Positions 53,638-64,000 of a stretch of 64,000 bases of DNA are shown here, in pieces (position 1 is the stretch's first letter; each line of letters begins with the position of its first letter). A program made the position numbers and the translations under genes. The notes under the pieces were generated by a model that had not been told where the DNA came from, did no database searches, and worked only from the letters and a program-made list of their open reading frames with translations. The stretch comes from Akkermansiaceae bacterium (lineage in GTDB: Bacteria; Verrucomicrobiota; Verrucomicrobiia; Verrucomicrobiales; Akkermansiaceae), in the NCBI GenBank assembly GCA_043716765.1, contig JAYSYA010000274.1, positions 3,082-67,081 on the forward strand, written 5' to 3'.

Positions 53638-54789
53638 TCACTCGGTCTCCGGCGGCATGAGCGCGCCCCACGGGGTGTCTCCCATTTTCGCGATCACCAC
53701 CGCCTTCGGCCAAGACGACAACGCCGGGAAATCCAAATTTTGCCAACCCTTCGGAGAGTCGCTGCTGCACAGCCAGTTGGCATCGGAGACGATGTGCAGT
53801 TTTTTGCCGTCTTTAAGGGTAGCGCGGAAGCGCAGGGCCATCCCGGCGGCTCCCTCTCTGTTGCGGCCCTCAACGGCGATGACATTGCCGCTGCCCGGCC
53901 TGAGCTGGGCCAGCACGTCGTAACTGCTGGGAGTTTTCCAATCACCGCCCATCCCGAGATGGACGCCGTTGATGAGCAGGCGGTGCTCGTCGTCGCAAAT
54001 CACGGTGACGGCGGCGCTGTCAACGTCAGCCGGAAGCTGAAATTCCCGCCGGAAAAACACCTTTTCATTCTTAGCGGGCTGGTTGGTTTTCCAGATCCAG
54101 GCTGCGGTCGGCGTGCCTCCCGGCGCGGCCTTGCCGCCCTGCTGGATTCGCAAGTGCTTAAACTCCGTCTTCATCGCCTGTCCCGCATGGACCTGCAACG
54201 CGATTACGCCTTTGGCGGAGCGCTTTTCCCGCTGCACGTCTTGGATTTCCGCCGCTAACTTGCCGTTGACGAAATGGCGGAGCATTTGCCCTTGAGCCAC
54301 GATCCGGTAGGAATTCCAAACTGCCAGATCCACGGTCGGCACCTCGAGCAGACCGGTTACTTCCGGAGTGTCGCCGAGTTTGACCCGCTGGCCGCGCTCG
54401 CAGGCGATTCCCCGACCCTTTTCCTCGTAGAGCATCCCGAGGTAGGATGGCTGTGGATGCAGATCCAGCTGATAGCCGCCGACCACCCACTTGGTGGGAT
54501 CGATCAAGCGGCTGCGGTATTGCACACCGGAGTTGTTGCCGCTGACGCGGGCTTGGAATTCGAGTTCGAAATCTCCCGGCTCGCCGCCCTGCCAGATTAG
54601 AAAGGAGTTGGCGTCGATTTTGCGGCCGACATCGTCGGTTTCGCCGATCAGCACGCCATCCTCCACCCGCCACAGTCGGGAATCACCGGACCAACCGGCG
54701 AGATCCGTGCCGTTGAAAAGCGCTTGCCAGCCAGCACGGCACGGCAAGACCGCCATCAGAAGGCAGAGCGGAATTAAAATTCGAGTCAT
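53638..54789 (-). CDS. Secreted DUF1080 (3-keto-disaccharide hydrolase) protein with C-terminal beta-sandwich
   Basis: Signal peptide; LFNGTDLAGW, NNSGVQYRS, GYQLD, GVIALQVH; C-terminal WIW...FFRREF...GSGNVIAVEG module. Confidence 0.82.
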   Translation of the reverse strand: MTRILIPLCLLMAVLPCRAGWQALFNGTDLAGWSGDSRLWRVEDGVLIGETDDVGRKIDANSFLIWQGGEPGDFELEFQARVSGNNSGVQYRSRLIDPTKWVVGGYQLDLHPQPSYLGMLYEEKGRGIACERGQRVKLGDTPEVTGLLEVPTVDLAVWNSYRIVAQGQMLRHFVNGKLAAEIQDVQREKRSAKGVIALQVHAGQAMKTEFKHLRIQQGGKAAPGGTPTAAWIWKTNQPAKNEKVFFRREFQLPADVDSAAVTVICDDEHRLLINGVHLGMGGDWKTPSSYDVLAQLRPGSGNVIAVEGRNREGAAGMALRFRATLKDGKKLHIVSDANWLCSSDSPKGWQNLDFPALSSWPKAVVIAKMGDTPWGALMPPETE

Positions 54790-54869
54790 CCGGCCTTGGA
54801 TACGGGCCACGGATTCCCGGGTTTTCACAAATAATCCCTGACCCGCGACTTCCCCTCTCGCGATCCATT

Positions 54870-55805
54870 TCAAGCTTCCGCCAAGAGGTTGCGGAAATAG
54901 GCGATGGTGGCGTCGAGACCTTGGTCCAGCGAGATCGTCGGCTCCCAGCCGAGCTCGGCTTTAGCCAGCGTGATGTCTGGCTGGCGCTGCTTCGGGTCAT
55001 CGCTAGGAAGCGGGAGAAAAGTGATTTCCGAGGCTCCACCGACTTTTTTCAAAACCAACTGCGCCAGCTGCAGCATCGTGAACTCGCCCGGATTGCCGAT
55101 GTTGACTGGGCCGGTAAGCGTCGGGTGGTTCATCAGCCGGATGAAGCCCTCGATCAAATCGTCCACATAACAGAACGAGCGGGTCTGGCTGCCGTCACCG
55201 TAAATGGTGAGGTCGCGCCCTTGGAGCGCCTGCACGATGAAATTCGAAACCACGCGGCCGTCGTCCGGCAACATCCGCGGACCGTAGGTGTTGAAAATTC
55301 GGACCACCCGGATATCGACCTGGTTCTGGCGGTGATAGTCGAAAAACAAGGTTTCGGCGCAGCGCTTGCCCTCGTCATAACAGGCGCGGATGCCGATGGG
55401 ATTGACGTTTCCGTGATACGATTCCGGCTGCGGATGGACGTCGGGATCGCCGTAAACTTCCGAAGTGGATGCTTGGAAAACCCGTGCGCCGGTGCGCTTC
55501 GCTAGACCGAGGCAATGGATCGCGCCCATGACCGAGGTTTTCGTGGTCTTGATCGGGTTGTGTTGGTAGTGCGGCGGCGACGCGGGGCAGGCGAGGTTGT
55601 AAATTTGATCGACCTCGTATTTAAAAGGCTCGGTCACGTCGTGGCGGACGAGCTCGAAGTAAGGATTGCCCATCAGGTGGGCGATGTTGCGCTTCCGGCC
55701 GGTGAAAAAGTTGTCCAAGCAGATGATTTCATTTCCCTCGCCGAGTAGCCGTTCACAGAGATGGGAGCCAAGGAAGCCTGCTCCACCGGTAATTAAAATG
55801 CGCAT
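54870..55805 (-). CDS. UDP-glucuronate decarboxylase (UDP-xylose synthase)
   Basis: [52 protein letters not shown] at 55805. Confidence 0.93.
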
Positions 55806-55926
55806 GCCCGCGAAATCAGCAGCATCCGCCAAGCAAATCAAGAATCGATCCGGCAAACTCCGCGACGGCCGCAGACTTTGTTCAAATTGGTTTGAACTCT
55901 CAGGACAGATCGCTAAGTTTCGGCCC

Positions 55927-56430
55927 ATGGGCGACCTGCTGGACGGAGACCAACACGAAATGGACCCCTTGGAACTCCAAGTGGTGGCCATGTTCGTGGA
56001 TGGCGTCCGCGTTTTGGGCCTGCCCCGTTCGATCGGAGAAATTTACGGGCTGCTTTTCATTTCACAATCCGCCCTCTCCTTGGACGATCTGGTTTGCCGC
56101 CTCCGCATCAGCAAAGGCTCTGCCAGCCAAGGGCTGCGGATGCTCAAAAGCCTCGGTGCGGTCCGCGAAACGGACGGCGGAGCCGATCGCCGCACGTATT
56201 ACGAACCCGCGATCGAGCTCAAGCGCCTCGCCGGCGGCTTCATCCGCGAGCAAATCCGACCGCATCTGGAGAATGGAAAAACCAAGATCGACCGGCTGGC
56301 GGAAAGCGCGCGCGTAATCGACGACCCCGAGCGCAGGAAATTTTTTGGCGAGCGCGTCGAACGGCTGGAAACATGGATGCGCAGCGGCGGCAGAGTGCTT
56401 CCCGTACTTCAAAAACTTCTCGGCCAATGA
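55927..56430 (+). CDS. GbsR/MarR-like winged-helix regulator
   Basis: [40 protein letters not shown]. Overlaps the next gene (ATGA). Confidence 0.82.
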
Positions 56431-56978
56431 ACACCACTGACCCACAGCTTCCCGAATGGTTCTGCCTCCGCTGCCAAACGAAACGCGAGCACATCGCCGC
56501 CGGACATTTGCGCCAACTCGAAGGCGTTGAGGTTTTCTGCCCCCGCCTCCGCTACCGCAAAGCCACCCGCCGCGGCAAAATCTGGTGGGTCGAGCCGATG
56601 TTTCCCGGCTACCTGCTGGCGAAATTCAACGTGGGCGAAATGGAGCGCGCCGTCACTTTCTGCCAAGGCGTCCGCGGTCTGGTGCGCTTCGGCTCGGAAA
56701 TCCCGCCCGTCCCCGAGTCATTCGTGGAGGCGATCAAACACGAAATCCTCAACCGCAAGGGAGCCGAGCATGATGAGCTCGTCACGCTCAGCCCGGTCAT
56801 TCAAATCGGCGATGAAGTGGAAGTCGCCTTCGGCCCGCTCCAAGGGATGCAGGGAACCGTCGTCGCGGTTCCATCCGCCACCGAGCGGGTAAAAATTCTC
56901 ATCGAATTTCTCGGAAACCCACAGGCGGTCGATATGGACCTCTTCTCCCTTCTTCTTCCGAGACGTCCAGCTCCCTGA
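56427..56978 (+). CDS. RfaH-like NusG paralog (transcription antiterminator)
   Basis: WFCLRC, EPMFPGYL, GVRGLVRFG NGN domain; GDEVEVAFGPLQGMQG KOW domain. Confidence 0.88.
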   Translation: MNTTDPQLPEWFCLRCQTKREHIAAGHLRQLEGVEVFCPRLRYRKATRRGKIWWVEPMFPGYLLAKFNVGEMERAVTFCQGVRGLVRFGSEIPPVPESFVEAIKHEILNRKGAEHDELVTLSPVIQIGDEVEVAFGPLQGMQGTVVAVPSATERVKILIEFLGNPQAVDMDLFSLLLPRRPAP

Positions 56979-57136
56979 AATTAAGAACGTTTCCTACGTG
57001 ATCTCGTTACTCATTTTTTGAATTTCCCATTCCATACTCGCCGCAGTCACCGGCAAAAACTTCCCCGCCGATGACCGCTCACCCCAGCCGCCCGCTTAAC
57101 CCAGGTTTCTCTCCAACTCGGATGAGATCGACCAAG

Positions 57137-57148
57137 GGCGGTAGCGTG
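57137..57148 (+). promoter_or_regulatory. ops (operon polarity suppressor) element
   Basis: Exact GGCGGTAGCGTG, preceded by ACCAAG (JUMPStart-like), in the leader between the NusG paralog and the polysaccharide genes. Confidence 0.8.
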
Positions 57149-57176
57149 GAAGCCGCCGCTCCCGACTTTTCCGACC

Positions 57177-58349
57177 TTGGAAGCTGACAAATCCACCGAC
57201 TTCCTAATCATCGGTGCCGGCTTTTCCGGACTTGTGATCGCTGAGCGCCTGTCCGCGGCCGGCTGGAAATGCGTCATCGTGGACCGCCGCGAGCACCTCG
57301 GCGGCAACGCCCGTGACGGCATCAACGCCGCCGGCGTCCTCACCCATCATTACGGCCCGCACTACTTCCGCTCCAACTCACCGCGAATCGTCGATTATCT
57401 ATCCAGTTTCACCGCGTGGCACAAGGTCAGCTACACCATCAAAAGCCACGCCCGCGGCCGCTACTGGAGTTTCCCGATCAATCTCAACACCTTCGAGGAA
57501 TACCTCGGCCAGCCTTCAACCACGGAAGAATTCACCGCCTGGCTGGAGCAAAAAAGAATCCACGTCACAGACCCGCAAAACTCCGAGGAAGTCATCATTT
57601 CCCAAGTCGGCCGCGAACTCTACGAACTGTTTTTCGAAGGCTACACGCTCAAACAATGGAAGCGCCACCCGCGCGAACTCGACGCCTCGGTCTGCGGCCG
57701 CATCCCCGTCCGCACGAACCGCGACGACCGCTATCTATCCGAATCCTTCCAGGCTCTGCCCAAACACGGCTACACCGCGCTTTTTGAAACGATGCTCAAC
57801 GCCTCTCCCGGCGTCGAACTCCACCTCGGCGTGGATTACGAAGAAGCCCGCGCTCGCTGGAACTACAAGCACCTCGTCTTCACCGGTGCCATCGATGAAT
57901 TCTACGGCCGCCGCTTCGGCGCACTGCCCTACCGCTCACTCCGCTTCGAGCACGAATCGTTCTCCGCCGAACAACTGCGCGCCCGCGAGCCCGTTTCAGG
58001 CAAACCCGGCTTCTGGCAGCCTGCAATGCAGGTCAACTATCCGGAACCCGACGTGCCATTCACTCGCATCGTCGAGATCAAGCACGCCACTGGCCAACAG
58101 ATCGACGCCACCACCACCGTCCGCGAGTTTCCCAAAGACTGGACACCTGACGACGAGCCGTTCTATCCGGTCCCCGCGCCGGAGGCCCGCGCCGCGTTCC
58201 TCCGCTACTCCGAGCTCGCCACCGCCGAGCCGCACACCAGCTTCATCGGCCGCCTCGCCACCTACCGTTATTATAACATGGACCAGGTCACCGCCATGGC
58301 CATCGCCGAGGCGGACAAACTCATTTCCACATACGGATCCAATCTATGA
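57177..58349 (+). CDS. glf: UDP-galactopyranose mutase
   Basis: [44 protein letters not shown] start. Confidence 0.93.
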
Positions 58350-59284
58350 CCAAACTATTCATCGCGGGACACCGCGGCATGGTCGGTTCGGCGCTCGTGA
58401 GCCAAGCCGAAAAACTCGGCGGCTATCAGCTCCTCTCCGCCACCCGCGACCAGCTCGATCTCTGCGACCAACACGCCGTCTTTGATTTCCTCGCCGCAGA
58501 AAAACCGGACGTCGTCATCATCGCCGCCGCCAAAGTCGGTGGCATTCACGCGAATTCCACCTACCCGGCGGACTTCATTTACGAAAATCTCAACATCGCC
58601 TCAAACCTCGTCGAAGGCAGCCGCCGCGCCGGAGTGCCGCGCGCGTTGTTCCTTGGTTCGTCCTGCATCTATCCAAAAATGGCACCTCAACCGATGCCGG
58701 AAGACTGCCTGCTCACCGGGCCGCTGGAAATCACTAACGAAGCTTACGCCATCGCCAAAATCGCCGGACTCAAGCTTTGCCAGCACTACCGCGCCCAGCA
58801 CGGACTGCTGTATCACAGCGCCATGCCCACCAACCTCTACGGCCCCGGCGACAACTACCACCCGGAGAACTCCCACGTCATCCCCGCCCTGATCCGCCGC
58901 TTCCACGAAGCCAAGGAACGAGGCGACGCCGCCGTCACGATCTGGGGCACCGGCACCCCGCGCCGCGAGTTCCTCCACGTCCACGACCTCGCCGCCGCCT
59001 GCTTCCACCTCTTGGCGTTAGAATCGCCGCCGGACTGGGTGAACGTCGGCGTCGGTGATGACGTCACGATTCTCGAACTCGCCACGCTTGTCGCCAAAAC
59101 CACCGGCTTCACCGGCGAGATCCTAACCGACGCCACCAAGCCCGACGGCACCCCGCGCAAGCTGCTGGATATTTCAAAGATCAAGGACACTGGCTGGCAG
59201 CCCCAAGTCCCCTTCGCAGATGGGCTCGCCGCGGCCTATCAGGATTTCCTCTCCACCCTTGCAACCGGTGAGGCTCGTCTCTAA
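58346..59284 (+). CDS. fcl: GDP-L-fucose synthase
   Basis: [53 protein letters not shown]. Confidence 0.95.
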
Positions 59285-59302
59285 AAAAATCACCTTCAAC
59301 AC

Positions 59303-60418
59303 ATGAAAAAAGCACTCATCACCGGCATCACCGGGCAAGACGGTTCCTACCTCGCTGAATTCCTGCTCGAAAAAGGCTATGAAGTCCACGGCATCAAGCG
59401 CCGCGCCTCGCTCTTCAACACTCAGCGGATCGACCACATTTATGAGGACCCACACGTCGAGAATTCCCGCTTCCGCTTGCACTACGGCGACCTCGCTGAC
59501 AGCTCGAACCTCACCCGCATCATCAGCGAGGTCCAACCGGACGAAGTTTACAACCTCGGCGCGCAATCCCACGTGGCCGTCTCTTTCGAAGCTCCCGAAT
59601 ACACTGCGGACGTCGATGCCATCGGCACGCTGCGGCTGTTGGAAGCGATCCGTTTCCTCGGACTCGAAAGGAAAACCCGGTTCTATCAGGCGTCCACCTC
59701 CGAGCTCTACGGCTTGGTCCAGGAAATTCCGCAGAAGGAAACCACTCCTTTCCACCCGCGTTCTCCATACGCCGTCGCCAAGATGTATGCCTACTGGATC
59801 ACGGTGAATTACCGCGAAGCCTACGGCATGTATGCGTGCAACGGCATCCTCTTCAACCACGAATCCCCGCGCCGCGGCGAGACCTTCGTCACCCGCAAGA
59901 TCACCCGCGCCATTGCTAACATCGCCCAAGGCCTCGAAGCCTGCCTGTTCCTCGGCAACATCGATTCCCTCCGCGACTGGGGCCACGCCAAGGACTACGT
60001 CCGCATGCAATGGATGATGCTCCAACAGGAAACCGCCGACGATTTCGTCATCGCCACCGGCAAACAGATTTCCGTCCGCGAGTTCGTCCGCATGGCCGCT
60101 CGCGAGGCCGGCATCCACCTGGCATTCTCCGGCGAGGGCGAAAAGGAAATCGCCACCGTCACCGCCGTCGATCCCCACCTCGCCCCGGCGGTGTCCGTGG
60201 GGGCCGTCGTCGTCAAGGTCGATCCCCGCTACTACCGCCCCGCCGAAGTGGAAACCCTGCTAGGCGACCCGACCAAGGCGAAGGATAAACTTGGCTGGGT
60301 TCCGGAAATCACCGTCGAGCAAATGTGCGCCGAGATGGTCGCCCACGACCTCGACATCGCCCGCCGCCACTCGCTGCTTAAATCCCACGGCCATCACGTT
60401 TCCGTCTCCAAAGAGTAG
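59303..60418 (+). CDS. gmd: GDP-mannose 4,6-dehydratase
   Basis: [40 protein letters not shown]. Confidence 0.97.
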
Positions 60419-60477
60419 CCGAAAAGCGAAAGGCAAGATTGCATCCGGTCGAACACTTGCACTCAACTCCATCCATC

Positions 60478-61560
60478 ATGCAAAAAGTCTTTGTCTCAGG
60501 CTGTTATGACATCCTCCACGCCGGCCACCTCCAGTTCTTCGAGGAGGCCCGCGCGCTGGGAGACTATCTGATCGTGTCATTCGCTTCCGCCGAGGTGCTT
60601 TGGCATCACAAGCGGCGCAAGCCATCCATTCCGGACGACCACAAGCGCGCTTTGCTCCAAGGCTTGCGGATGATCGACGAAGTCATCGTCACCCAAGGCC
60701 ACAAAGAGGGACTCGACTTTGAGCAAGACTTCCTCCGCATCCGCCCCGACTTTCTCATCGTCACCGAGGACGACAAATACGGCGACGTGAAGCGCGAACT
60801 CTGCGCCGCGGTCGGCGCGGAATACACTGTTCTCGCCAAAACCCCGCCGCGCTTCGAACCGGTCTCTACCAGCTCGATCGTCCGCTGGGTCCAAGCACCT
60901 ACCGAAGCGCCCTTGCGGATCGATTTCGCCGGGGGCTGGCTCGACGTCCCGCGCTTCTCCCGCCCCGGTGAGTTCGTGGTAAATTGCGCGATTTCCCCGC
61001 TCGTCTCCCTCCGCGAGTGGCCCTACGAAAAGCAAGCCGGCCTCGGCGGCAGTGGCGCGTGGGCCCTGCTCAATGGCCGCGACGGCGTGGACTCGGAAAT
61101 CGACCTCGGCGTCGGTTGGCAAGACCCCGCCGTGATTCGCGAGACAGGGCTTTGCGTCTGGCGCTCCGGGAAAAAACCGGCGCTCGATTTCAAACAGAAC
61201 GGCGATTTTCTAACCGGCCGCATGGCGGTTTACTGGACTGGCAGCCCGCACGACACACCCGGCGTCGCCAATCATCCGCGCGACTATGATGGCATCGCCC
61301 GCAGCGCCCGGGTCGCCCGCGAAGGCGCGCTCCAAGCCGATATCCGCTGCCTGGCTGACGGCGTCCATCTCTATCACATGACCCAGCTCGCGGAAGGCAT
61401 GGACCCCCTGCCGGAAATCCCCGGTGCCATCGCCCGCAAATACTGCGGCGGCGGTCACGGCGGCTACGCGCTCTATCTGTTTGACGAGCCCGCCCTCCGC
61501 GACACCGCCATCGCCACCACTCCGGAGCTTCGCGCTGTCGAACCGTTCTGCCGCGTCTGA
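60478..61560 (+). CDS. Fusion of a HIGH-type nucleotidyltransferase and a GHMP-like sugar kinase
   Basis: GCYDILHAGH (HxGH) N-domain; PLRIDFAGGWLD, GLGGSGA, GWQD, KYCGGGHGG in the C-domain. Confidence 0.75.
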   Translation: MQKVFVSGCYDILHAGHLQFFEEARALGDYLIVSFASAEVLWHHKRRKPSIPDDHKRALLQGLRMIDEVIVTQGHKEGLDFEQDFLRIRPDFLIVTEDDKYGDVKRELCAAVGAEYTVLAKTPPRFEPVSTSSIVRWVQAPTEAPLRIDFAGGWLDVPRFSRPGEFVVNCAISPLVSLREWPYEKQAGLGGSGAWALLNGRDGVDSEIDLGVGWQDPAVIRETGLCVWRSGKKPALDFKQNGDFLTGRMAVYWTGSPHDTPGVANHPRDYDGIARSARVAREGALQADIRCLADGVHLYHMTQLAEGMDPLPEIPGAIARKYCGGGHGGYALYLFDEPALRDTAIATTPELRAVEPFCRV

Positions 61561-61582
61561 AGAAATCAGTTAGCCTGTTAAT

Positions 61583-62347
61583 TTGAAGACCGTCTGCATC
61601 ATCGGCCTGCCCGTCGCGGCGACCACTTACGCCGGAGCCGTGGAATGGATCCTGGAGCACGCCCGGAGAAACGACCGCGCCTACGCCGTGGAGGCCGCCA
61701 ACACCCACGTCGCCGCCTTGGCCCGCAGCGATGAGGACTTCGGCGAGTCCATGCGGCGCTTCGACTTGATCTGCCCCGACGGCATGCCGCTCGTCTGGGC
61801 GCTCAACTCCCGGCTCGCCGCGGACGAAAAACTTCGCGCCCGGGTTTACGGGCCGACCCTGATGTTGGAAACGCTCAAGGCGACTAACGGACTCTCGGAA
61901 TTCAAACATTTCCTGCTTGGCGGCATGCAAAGCACGCTGGACGAGTTGACGCGCAACTTCGCCACCCGCTTCCCTAACGTCGCCATCGCCGCCTCCCACT
62001 CGCCACCGTTCGGAGAGTGGCCGGAAAGCGAATTCGAGCTCATCGCGGAGAAAATCCGGAGCTCGGGAGCCAACCTCGTGTGGGTCGGCCTCGGCTGCCC
62101 GAAGCAGGAGCATTGGATCGCCCACAACAGGCACCGCCTGCCGCCGGGCGTCTATTTCGGCATCGGCGCGGCCTTCGCCTTCCACGCGGGCGAAGTCAGA
62201 CAATCGCCGCCCGTCCTCCAGCGCCTCGGCTTGGAATGGGCCTATCGCGTGGCGATGGAGCCCCGCCGACTCTTCAAACGTTACTTTGTTTACAACTCCC
62301 TTTTTATCTACCACCTCCTGCGCGAGCGCATTTTCCCGAACCACTGA
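61583..62347 (+). CDS. WecB/TagA/CpsF family glycosyltransferase
   Basis: [36 protein letters not shown]...EPRRLFKRY. Confidence 0.93.
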
Positions 62348-62364
62348 AAAACCCTAACTTTCTT

Positions 62365-63753
62365 ATGCCTATCAAATCCATCTGCTGCCTCGGTGCCGGT
62401 TACGTCGGCGGCCCCACCATGGCCATGATCGCCGCCAAGTGCCCTCACATCAAGGTGACCGTCGCGGACATGAATGAACAGCGCATCGCCGCTTGGAACT
62501 CGGACACCCTGCCCGTTTACGAGCCCGGTCTCGACGCCATCGTCGCCTCCGCCCTCCACCGGAACCTCCATTTCACCACCGACATCCGCTCCGCCATCGC
62601 CGGCGCGGATCTGATCTTCGTTTCGGTCGGCACGCCCACCAAGTCCTACGGCATCGGTGCCGGTCGCGCTGCGGACCTCCGGTATATCGAGTCCGCCGCC
62701 CGCCTGATCGCGGAAGTTTCAGAGGGCCATAAAATCATTGTCGAAAAAAGCACGATCCCGGTCAAAACCGCCACCGCGATCAAGTCGATCCTCGCCGCGA
62801 ACTCTCCTAACGGCGCAACCTTCCAAGTCCTATCCAACCCCGAGTTCCTCGCAGAAGGCACCGCCATCGAAGACCTCCAATGCCCGGACCGGATTCTAAT
62901 TGGTGGTGAAATCACCCCTGAAGGCAACGCCGCCGTCGAAGCCCTTGTGTCGATCTATGCCCATTGGATCCCCCGCGAGCGCATCCTCACCACCAACCTC
63001 TGGTCGGCGGAACTTTCCAAGCTCGTCGCCAACGCTTTCCTCGCCCAACGGATTTCCTCCATCAACTCCATCTCCGCTCTCTGCGAGGCCACCGGTGCCG
63101 ATGTCAACGAGGTCGCCCGCGCCATCGGCATGGACTCACGGATCGGCCCAAAATTCCTCAAAGCCTCCGTCGGCTTCGGCGGGTCCTGCTTCCAAAAAGA
63201 CCTCCTCAACCTCGTCTATCTCTGCGAGTCCTTCAACCTCCCGGAGGTCGCGGAATACTGGCGTCAAGTCGTGCAGCTCAACAACTGGCAGAAGTCGCGC
63301 TTCGTCGAGAAAATCGTCCGCACCCTGTATAACACCGTCAACGGCAAGCGGATCGCCATCCTCGGCTTCGCTTTCAAAAAGGACACCAACGACACCCGCG
63401 AATCCCCCGCCATCCAGGTCTGCCGCGACCTTCTCCACGAACGCGCCCACCTCGCCATTTACGACCCGCGAGTCAGCGCGGAAAATATCCATCAGGATCT
63501 AATCGCCGCCGGTGTGCCAGCGGAGCTCATCGCCACCAACGTGGAGATTTGCAGCGACCCCTACACTGCGGCCGCCGGGGCGCACGCCCTCGCCACCCTC
63601 ACCGAATGGGACGAATTCCGCACCCTCGACCTGCCGCGCGTTTATGACCTCATGCTCAAGCCCGCCTTCGTTTTCGACGGCCGCGCCGTCCTTTCCCTGG
63701 AAGCGCTCGTCGCCCACGGCTTCGAGGCCTTTGTCATCGGCAAAGGGCTGTGA
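62365..63753 (+). CDS. ugd: UDP-glucose 6-dehydrogenase
   Basis: [55 protein letters not shown] at 62365. Confidence 0.95.
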
Positions 63754-63863
63754 GATAAAACCCCGAGTCCGCTGAAATTAACGCTGCGCTGCGAGATTTT
63801 TGAGATTTTCCGTCGCTCCTCGTTGATCTTCGTTTCAGATCTCTCCCTTTCAGCATTCACCCC

Positions 63864-64000
63864 ATGAACATCCACCCCGAGTTCCACCGCTTTTTGCAGC
63901 GCCACGACAAGGAAAGCCTTCTCGGCCAACGCGGCCTCGTCGTCTGGCTTTGCGGGTTGTCCGGCTCGGGGAAATCCACCATCGCCAACGCCGCCGAGCG
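63864..64000 (+). CDS. cysC: Adenylyl-sulfate kinase, partial (runs off the window)
   Basis: MNIHPEFHRFLQRHDKESLLGQRGLVVWLCGLSGSGKSTIANAAER; typical CysC P-loop context. Confidence 0.82.
   Translation, partial: MNIHPEFHRFLQRHDKESLLGQRGLVVWLCGLSGSGKSTIANAAE

Follow-up and report, generated by a model that had tools for sequence, protein, structure and literature searches.

How far from the enterobacteria can the control of long polysaccharide operons by a specialised NusG paralog and an ops-type signal be recognised? This question is raised by a stretch of 64,000 nucleotides (nt) from an Akkermansiaceae bacterium of the phylum Verrucomicrobiota (GCA_043716765.1, contig JAYSYA010000274.1; genome of 3.43 Mb), hereafter the window, in which the genes of a winged helix-turn-helix (wHTH) regulator and of a NusG paralog (NusG-SP) are followed by a leader with an exact ops 12-mer and by a long operon that begins with glf. 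In E. coli, RfaH is recruited at ops, suppresses the polarity of long polysaccharide operons and aids ribosome loading. A first-pass annotation of the window had proposed that an RfaH/ops circuit with the identical 12-mer operates here, acting in cis and coupled to a GbsR-like repressor gene. The analysis reported here identifies a real and conserved regulatory element of about 45 nt in the leader, which most likely works like RfaH/ops, although the paralog scores below the RfaH family cut-offs and the leader is not matched by the JUMPstart model. The element is probably a pause and loading site for the specialised paralog encoded just upstream. The parts of the locus involved are the following:

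55927 to 56430, + strand: wHTH regulator gene, 167 amino acids, read from a conserved ATG; GbsR/MJ223-type, MarR superfamily
56427 to 56978, + strand: gene of the NusG paralog (NusG-SP), 183 amino acids, NGN and KOW domains, RfaH-like; Pfam NusG 48.5 bits
57104 to 57127, + strand: GGTTTC and hairpin (5' arm about 57108-57114, loop 57115-57119, 3' arm 57120-57127), putative nascent-RNA pause hairpin
57126 to 57136, + strand: invariant upstream block GATCGACCAAG, with A5, C6, C7 and A8 of the block the same in 68 of 68 aligned copies
57137 to 57148, + strand: ops-type 12-mer GGCGGTAGCGTG, putative pause at T11 and putative non-template-strand hairpin C3:G8 with loop GGTA
57177 to 58349, + strand: glf (UDP-galactopyranose mutase), first gene after ops, TTG start; Pfam GLF 219 bits

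A conserved leader element with the ops 12-mer at its 3' end

The exact GGCGGTAGCGTG stands, on re-reading, where the first-pass annotation had placed it, in the leader between the paralog and glf; it begins 158 nt past the paralog stop and ends 28 nt ahead of the TTG. The 12-mer alone is only moderately improbable and constitutes weak evidence, and it is the extended sequence that carries the weight. An exact copy is present in one of 100 dinucleotide-preserving shuffles of the window (mean 0.01), a match with one mismatch is present in 35 of 100 (0.43 expected), and the loose consensus GGCGGTAGNNTG shows no genome-wide enrichment, with 8 matches against 25 for the reversed control. The extended 20-mer CGACCAAGGGCGGTAGCGTG occurs twice in the whole genome, each time in the leader of a polysaccharide operon, and both copies hold an exact match to the ops consensus GGCGGTAGnnTG on the sense strand (57137-57148 and contig C173:603-614). 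Since the 20-mer is duplicated at two polysaccharide leaders and is kept in relatives, the window site stands above chance.

The 12-mer is in fact the 3' end of a longer element (57104-57148), composed of GGTTTC, a covarying hairpin and GATCGACCAnGGGCGGYAGCGTG. Among 80 orthologous loci with 70-95% protein identity, drawn from genomes of Akkermansiaceae and Luteolibacter, in which the order wHTH gene, paralog, leader, (glf), fcl and gmd is kept, the scan of orthologous leaders suggested by the first-pass annotation returned the element at the same place in 66, 58-168 nt past the paralog stop, with the consensus GGTTTC, hairpin (yyTCC, loop, GGArr), GATCGACCA, n and GGGCGGYAGCGTG. In an alignment of 68 copies, C3, G4, G5, A7 and G8 are invariant (68/68; G1 to G5 in 67-68), and the consensus-pause positions are kept in 67-68 (G1 and G2, at -11 and -10), 67 (T11, at -1) and 53 (G12, at +1) of the copies. 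At position 6, 52 copies have C and 16 have T, the T copies being distributed over several separate clades. The exact E. coli 12-mer is consequently a minority variant locally, the family consensus being one base off (C6), and the identity of the 12-mer in a distant phylum claimed by the first-pass annotation is true of the window but not of most of its relatives. The hairpin is seen in the pair counts of the same 68 copies: 88.7% of the cells are paired, against 78.4% in shuffles and 39-64% in slid controls, 60 cells have changed on both sides (21.6 in shuffles), and none of 500 shuffles reaches the observed pairing. RNAalifold alone did not predict this upstream hairpin, which therefore depends on those counts, and did predict the C3:G8 pair within ops.

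The distribution of the element has been also followed in an even sample of 401 Verrucomicrobiota genomes, where the 16-mer GACCANGGGCGGYAGC has 62 matches in 37 genomes (27 matches for the reversed control). The paralog family, defined by the profile of alignment A3 at E <= 1e-20, is found in 96 genomes of the sample (24%). It is present in 34 of the 37 motif-positive genomes and in 7 of 26 genomes with a control match, which is the base rate; these counts are given without a p-value because related genomes are not independent, but the contrast is plain. In a sister genus of the same family (28 genomes of 1.7-3.3 Mb) neither motif nor paralog is found. In other families and classes, the motif adjoins homologues of the paralog (36-45% identity), of the wHTH regulator or of both, in three layouts (wHTH-paralog-ops, wHTH-ops and ops-wHTH), and the genes downstream include gmd, glmS, cysD, a UDP-glucuronate decarboxylase-like gene and genes for DegT-type aminotransferases and ABC exporters. 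Across the phylum, position 10 varies and T11 and G12 do not, which is the pattern of the enterobacterial consensus. Because the arrangement of element and paralog is conserved across the phylum, an RfaH-like reading of long operons very probably works there. Of the circuit proposed by the first-pass annotation, the conserved pairing of paralog and ops (66 of 80 loci, 34 of 37 genomes) and the joint absence of both from the sister genus speak for it; what does not stand is the bare 12-mer as the signal and a demonstrable RfaH as its reader.

Two genomes with many 16-mer matches, G267 (seven copies, L137-L143) and G363 (six), were considered as large regulons and rejected, these copies lying in repeats of about 90 nt or at contig ends, and were not counted as ops. 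The core GACCAAGGGCGGCAGC belongs there to a multi-copy repeat of about 90 nt with a terminator-like hairpin (AAGGGC...GCCCTTTTT), which precedes small hypothetical open reading frames rather than sugar genes and is a separate repeat family. Homologues of the paralog with a single in-frame stop were observed in ten genomes (G017, G038, G057, G126, G165, G066, G258, G108, G168 and G370), and may be pseudogenes, sequencing errors or split genes.

The second site, the NusG paralog and the wHTH regulator

The second copy of the 20-mer (C173:595-614) stands in non-coding leader sequence, some 480 nt ahead of a cluster longer than 14 kb whose genes all run in one direction; they encode two MBOAT acyltransferases, a flippase-like protein, a methyltransferase, glycosyltransferases and an acyltransferase. 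When the elements of the relatives were made into a covariance model (R1), it found exactly these two sites in the genome, with 65.6 and 38.4 bits, the next match having an E value of 0.1. Action in cis only, as the first-pass annotation would have it, is at odds with this unlinked operon, and also with other genomes in which sites lie far from the paralog gene. Directly upstream of the second ops copy and its promoter palindrome (see below), C173:1-460 (locus L019/L004) contains at least three tandem copies of a unit of about 120 nt rich in CAAAATCC repeats.

The genome contains only two genes with a NusG N-terminal domain, one for the housekeeping NusG (contig C246) and the other for this paralog, which has an NGN and a single KOW domain and is distinct from the former. 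Its NCBIfam scores are highest for RfaH (67 bits), followed by LoaP (57), UpxY (55) and NusG (40), all of them below the cut-offs: 67.0 against 144.5 and 59.4 against 124 for RfaH (TIGR01955 / NF006534 models), 56.8 against 125 for LoaP (NF033641) and 54.8 against 100 for UpxY. RfaH is also the best-scoring model for all 89 members of a diverse alignment of the family, followed by UpxY, LoaP and NusG, with no member near a cut-off. Among solved structures, E. coli RfaH comes closest (35 bits, E 1e-7), with NusG at 27 bits or less, and a small tree splits nine verrucomicrobial paralogs, together with E. coli RfaH, from the housekeeping NusG of E. coli and Verrucomicrobiota with 100/100 support; the RfaH branch of this tree is very long, and LoaP, UpxY and TaA references are absent from it. 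Among culturable relatives, Luteolibacter yonseiensis (P0108) has a paralog about 81% identical to that of the window. The protein is thus an RfaH-like specialised NusG paralog and no demonstrable RfaH: its grouping with RfaH agrees with the first-pass annotation as far as the separation from housekeeping NusG goes, and the sub-threshold scores and differing contact residues do not. In an AlphaFold2 model (89 sequences, pLDDT 86), the C-terminal domain is a beta-barrel KOW (strands within 118-171, pLDDT 74-90), and the match to autoinhibited RfaH structures is confined to the NGN part. Regarding the residues involved in RfaH autoinhibition, E48 is kept, and K104 and V146 stand in the place of I93 and F130. 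Basic residues abound in the beta2-beta3 hairpin of the paralog (P0001 sequence), PRLRYRKATRRGK, which would suit contacts with upstream DNA.

Among solved structures, the wHTH protein is best matched by PDB 1KU9 (E 1.9e-12, residues 17-161 of 167), the structure of MJ223, the prototype of the GbsR-type MarR regulators. With 33 bits for NCBIfam CudC (cut-off 218) and 20.8 for Pfam MarR_2 (cut-off 27), it belongs to the GbsR/MJ223 fold class and not to a named equivalog. Its stop overlaps the paralog start (ATGA), its gene lies directly upstream of the paralog in about 80 loci, and it adjoins ops across the phylum; the coupling to a GbsR-like gene described by the first-pass annotation is therefore well borne out, while action as a repressor is a presumed role. 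Two features precede it:

55880 to 55897, + strand: palindrome GTTCAAATTGGTTTGAAC (GTTCA-N8-TGAAC), putative operator of the wHTH regulator, 30 nt before the wHTH start
55914 to 55919, + strand: -10-like TAAGTT of a putative promoter, 16 nt past TTGAAC and 7 nt before the wHTH ATG

The right half of the palindrome doubles as the -35-like TTGAAC, and TAnnnT is conserved in the aligned orthologous upstream regions; a sigma-70 scan did not call the TAAGTT promoter. With this spacing, which is conserved in relatives, the wHTH mRNA would be leaderless or nearly so. Of 76 orthologous loci, 74 have an exact GTTCA-N8-TGAAC in this position, and the palindrome is found ahead of the wHTH homologues of other classes too. 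In the entire genome there are four copies: at the wHTH promoter, at C173:485-502 (110 nt upstream of the second ops copy), on contig C244 and in one apparently coding position. A composite of palindrome, 80-110 nt and ops core was found in 9 genomes of 3 families, with no reversed-pattern match in the 401 genomes. The simplest reading is that the wHTH regulator would bind the palindrome and set initiation at the units whose elongation the paralog would secure. The intergenic copy at C244:5687-5704 stands some 40 nt ahead of glmM (phosphoglucosamine mutase); it has no ops element with it and might likewise be bound by the regulator.

The remaining features of the window are those of the leader and of the operon itself:

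56989 to 57012, + strand: conserved block GTTTCCTACGTGATCTCGTTACTC with near-palindrome ACGnGATCnCGT, directly past the paralog stop; operator or RNA hairpin candidate
57040 to 57103, + strand: C-rich, G-poor (rut-like) leader tract, GC skew -0.3 to -0.6; candidate site of Rho loading
58346 to 64000, + strand: remainder of the operon in the window (fcl, gmd, nucleotidyltransferase-like gene, WecG-family glycosyltransferase gene, ugd and the start of cysC)

The C-rich composition with few G is shared by the 68 aligned copies at leader positions -50 to -22, and the block at 56989-57012 is conserved in 36 aligned leaders, where an AATACTC motif also follows the paralog stop. The near-palindrome follows the paralog stop in most relatives; in loci L088-L096, one clade with short leaders, the palindrome stands as CTACGCGATCGCGTAG directly before ops in place of the usual hairpin, which suggests that two GTTTCC-hairpin modules have undergone a duplication or a deletion between them. 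When the leader was searched permissively against Rfam, the sole match was to a small RNA at E 9.3, attributable to chance.

The gene order reported by the first-pass annotation is confirmed and extends past the window edge through cysD and cysN to about 66884 on the window scale; all genes of glf-fcl-gmd-nucleotidyltransferase-wecG-ugd-cysC-cysD-cysN run in one direction over about 9.7 kb. The TTG at 57177 is the sole possible in-frame start of glf and is conserved among relatives, mostly 28-29 nt from ops. No Shine-Dalgarno-like purine run was seen upstream of it, as already noted in the earlier annotation; such a sequence is equally absent before the neighbouring wHTH, paralog, fcl and gmd genes, and hence its lack is no peculiarity of glf. 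Divergent from the wHTH promoter, and conserved in position, there is a UDP-glucuronate decarboxylase-like SDR gene (54870-55805, - strand), whose orthologue in another family (79% identical) directly follows an ops site as the leading gene. Beyond the SDR gene of the window, at 53638-54873 (- strand), is a gene for a protein with a 3-keto-disaccharide hydrolase domain.

Proposed mechanism and rival explanations

What the analysis shows are the sequences, their conservation, the covariation of the hairpin, the co-occurrence with the paralog and the second site; in the sequence of events that can be proposed for this locus, pausing, binding, anti-termination, the involvement of Rho and the role of the wHTH regulator are all inferred. 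The transcript would begin at the GTTCA-N8-TGAAC promoter ahead of the wHTH gene, and perhaps at another promoter within the leader as well (a scan for sigma-70 promoters and terminators from the paralog to ops gave nothing usable), and it would cross the C-rich, G-poor stretch, where Rho could load. After transcribing the hairpin, the polymerase would pause at T11 of GGCGGYAGCGTG, a consensus-pause sequence, and in the open bubble the non-template strand would form the C3:G8 hairpin and present G4-G5-Y6-A7. With the polymerase at ops, the upstream block would be upstream fork or duplex DNA, and the NGN domain of the paralog would read the non-template hairpin together with the invariant block at the fork, bind the polymerase, displacing the housekeeping NusG, and remain bound. 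The nucleotide-sugar and sulphate-activation operon of about 10 kb and, in trans, the C173 operon would in this manner be read through without Rho-dependent polarity, and, at the promoters that share the palindrome, initiation would probably be set by the GbsR-type regulator, so that control would act on two tiers. The distance of 28-29 nt between ops and the TTG would fit a factor-aided ribosome recruitment as in RfaH, to which little weight is given because Shine-Dalgarno sequences seem to be sparingly used in this genome. As to Rho, the genome has a homologue: one Rho-like match, at C201:17358-18581, falls in a 663-amino-acid open frame, whose product would carry a long N-terminal extension, and a second, at C331:6-1022, is cut by the contig end.

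Several results weigh against a loading site for this paralog. The five RfaH residues that read ops, K10, H20, R23, Q24 and R73 (PMC5995543), align to Q17, H27, Q30, E32 and Q80 of the paralog, where only the histidine is kept (one of five); the phmmer alignment to 2OUG/5OND on which this is based has about 22% identity and is possibly off by a residue. The comparison of ops-contacting residues suggested in the first-pass annotation hence went against a direct equivalence in four positions. No paralog residue was found to covary with the C or T at position 6, whose base enters the pocket of RfaH, the largest frequency difference being 0.4 at a variable linker site, and the autoinhibited alpha-helical C-terminal domain is not seen in the AlphaFold model, which is one predicted state and leaves room for fold switching. 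About 8 relatives (L025, L026, L051, L057, L059, L061, L063 and L097) have no leader, the paralog abutting glf at 15-45 nt, and no element within 3 kb. At the phylum level, the raw 16-mer is only about 2-fold above the reversed control, and 13 of its 62 matches lie inside the unrelated repeats of G267 and G363. Finally, the paralog and wHTH genes travel together, and their co-occurrence with the element cannot tell which of them reads it.

These points leave space for other explanations, each of which is nevertheless improbable to some degree. The element might act as RNA, the hairpin and its 3' tail being bound by the KOW domain of the paralog, by the wHTH protein or by another factor, with the likeness to ops secondary. 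The covariation of the hairpin is indeed of RNA type, G:U pairs included, LoaP has been proposed to need a nascent RNA hairpin (PMC11685472), and the LoaP score of the paralog is close to that for RfaH, whose ops-contact residues are not kept. This is unlikely all the same, since the most conserved part is single-stranded and matches the E. coli DNA signal including the bases G1, G2, T11 and G12 that serve in pausing only, and pause hairpins in Bacteroides stand beside a site read as DNA (PMC11685472), so that a hairpin is no argument against DNA read-out. Slightly less probable still is a factor-independent pause or attenuator that would synchronise transcription with translation of the TTG start lacking a Shine-Dalgarno sequence, the paralog working elsewhere or without sequence specificity. 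The relatives that keep the paralog without a leader, the conserved spacing to the TTG and the fact that ops is an example of the consensus pause (PMC5995543) would agree with such a device, whereas G4, G5, A7 and G8 are dispensable for pausing in E. coli (PMC5995543) and yet invariant here, and the motif is nearly confined to genomes that carry the paralog.

There is also a slim chance that the element is a DNA operator of the co-encoded wHTH regulator, which is its nearest neighbour in several loci of the phylum without an adjacent paralog; the element is not palindromic, however, it lies in transcribed leaders at least 100 nt downstream of the promoters concerned, and the GTTCA-N8-TGAAC at these promoters (74 of 76 loci) is a far better candidate. 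A chance match to a GC-rich 12-mer, with which the frequent one-mismatch hits in shuffles and the lack of enrichment of the loose consensus would be compatible, has a negligible probability and is refuted by the conservation data: the exact match is rare in shuffles, the 20-mer recurs at a second leader, and the element is found with its covariation in 66 loci. A pause and loading site for the NusG paralog is thus the reading retained, and held as probable.

Its wider meaning is more speculative. Matches to RfaH models have been reported in 23 of 117 phyla, with Proteobacteria accounting for 95% of the matches, and the origin of RfaH has been placed in Proteobacteria (Wang et al. 2020, PMC7593976), where it is held to have acquired ops recognition and autoinhibition late (PMC7593976). 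A full-text literature search on RfaH, ops or JUMPstart in Verrucomicrobia found no relevant paper. The arrangement hairpin/CCAnG/GGCGGYAGnnTG could conceivably, though with somewhat less than even likelihood, be an ancient loading site shared across phyla and not a late proteobacterial invention of RfaH, used by a verrucomicrobial paralog with other contacts that tolerates C or T and forming, with a GbsR-type regulator bound at GTTCA-N8-TGAAC promoters, a regulon for surface glycans controlled in two tiers, initiation and elongation. A nearly identical DNA signal next to a paralog with differing reading residues, in a phylum far from Proteobacteria, leaves two options: either the signal is much older than RfaH, or pausing and the non-template hairpin repeatedly force the same solution. 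Either option bears on how elongation factors find their targets, and the recruitment signals of NusG paralogs are not yet known in most other phyla. The element also offers a sequence rule for predicting a glycan regulon in Verrucomicrobiota, including environmental Luteolibacter, a natural series of C/T variants for the study of flipped-out base recognition and, in the wHTH promoter palindrome plus ops, a candidate two-tier circuit.

Comparison with known systems

The closest resemblance in sequence is with the RfaH/ops-JUMPstart system of E. coli. The waaQ leader of MG1655 reads CAGUAUUCAGGUAGCUGUUGAGCCUGGGGCGGUAGCGUG; it shares with the window the same 12 bases and 17 of the 18 bases of CCAnGGGCGGTAGCGTG, CCAnG stands directly before ops in both, and a hairpin lies directly 5' of ops. 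The two systems are also alike in the position of the signal, in leaders of long polysaccharide operons, in having a single paralog per genome that serves more than one operon, in the conservation of C3, G4, G5, A7, G8 and the pause bases, and in the best profile and PDB matches of the protein, which are to RfaH. In E. coli, changes of G4, G5, A7 or G8 abolish RfaH recruitment and T6A lowers it about threefold (PMC5995543); the four bases whose change abolishes recruitment are the invariant ones here, and position 6 is the variable one. On the other hand, the window family mostly has C at this position and not the invariant, flipped-out T6, and, compared with the E. coli JUMPstart, its inner hairpin is longer and GATCGA is added as an invariant block; and the paralog, from a different phylum, differs from RfaH in its ops-contact residues and in the lack of a predicted alpha-helical C-terminal domain. 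Rfam JUMPstart (RF01707) scores the waaQ leader with 55.2 bits and has no match up to E 10 in 56900-57300 (gathering score 35 bits), the R1 model gives the E. coli site only 11.7 bits, and a blastn search of the leader against 5,426 E. coli genomes returned nothing, the match being too short for that database.

In architecture, the element can be compared with opsX of Bacteroides, a site of about 40 bp in which the pause hairpin and upstream duplex DNA have been shown to be necessary for UpxY recruitment (PMC11685472). Both are multipartite sites of about 40 nt in which a region coding for a pause hairpin, putative in the window, is combined with a block of upstream DNA and with a non-template hairpin of the form GCG..AGC, and both lie a short distance from a start codon; in both, the factor gene is linked to the polysaccharide operon under control, and the NGN beta2-beta3 hairpin is rich in basic residues. 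Unlike opsX, however, the window site has the E. coli form of the non-template hairpin, GCGGYAGC, and not YGCGNAGCR, and it follows the factor gene instead of preceding it. Each genome has a single paralog here, in contrast to eight or more in the UpxY system, and the partner is a wHTH regulator; no UpxZ-like inhibitor was seen, although no UpxZ search was made.

Another example is LoaP of Bacillus velezensis, also a specialised NusG paralog beside a long biosynthetic operon, with a conserved leader hairpin; it differs in that the LoaP model gives the present paralog a score of less than half its cut-off, and in that the proposed read-out of LoaP is RNA. To our knowledge, no ops-type 12-mer has been reported at LoaP targets. 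Going by its description (PMC11880322), PrfaH of IncX plasmids resembles the present locus in that the factor gene and an ops-like site lie downstream of the factor's own promoter in the same transcription unit, whereas PrfaH-type activators are described from proteobacterial plasmids and control conjugation genes; the comparison is one of layout as described. Judged from its parts, the layout of hairpin, upstream block and ops appears closer to opsX and JUMPstart than to a bare 12-mer.

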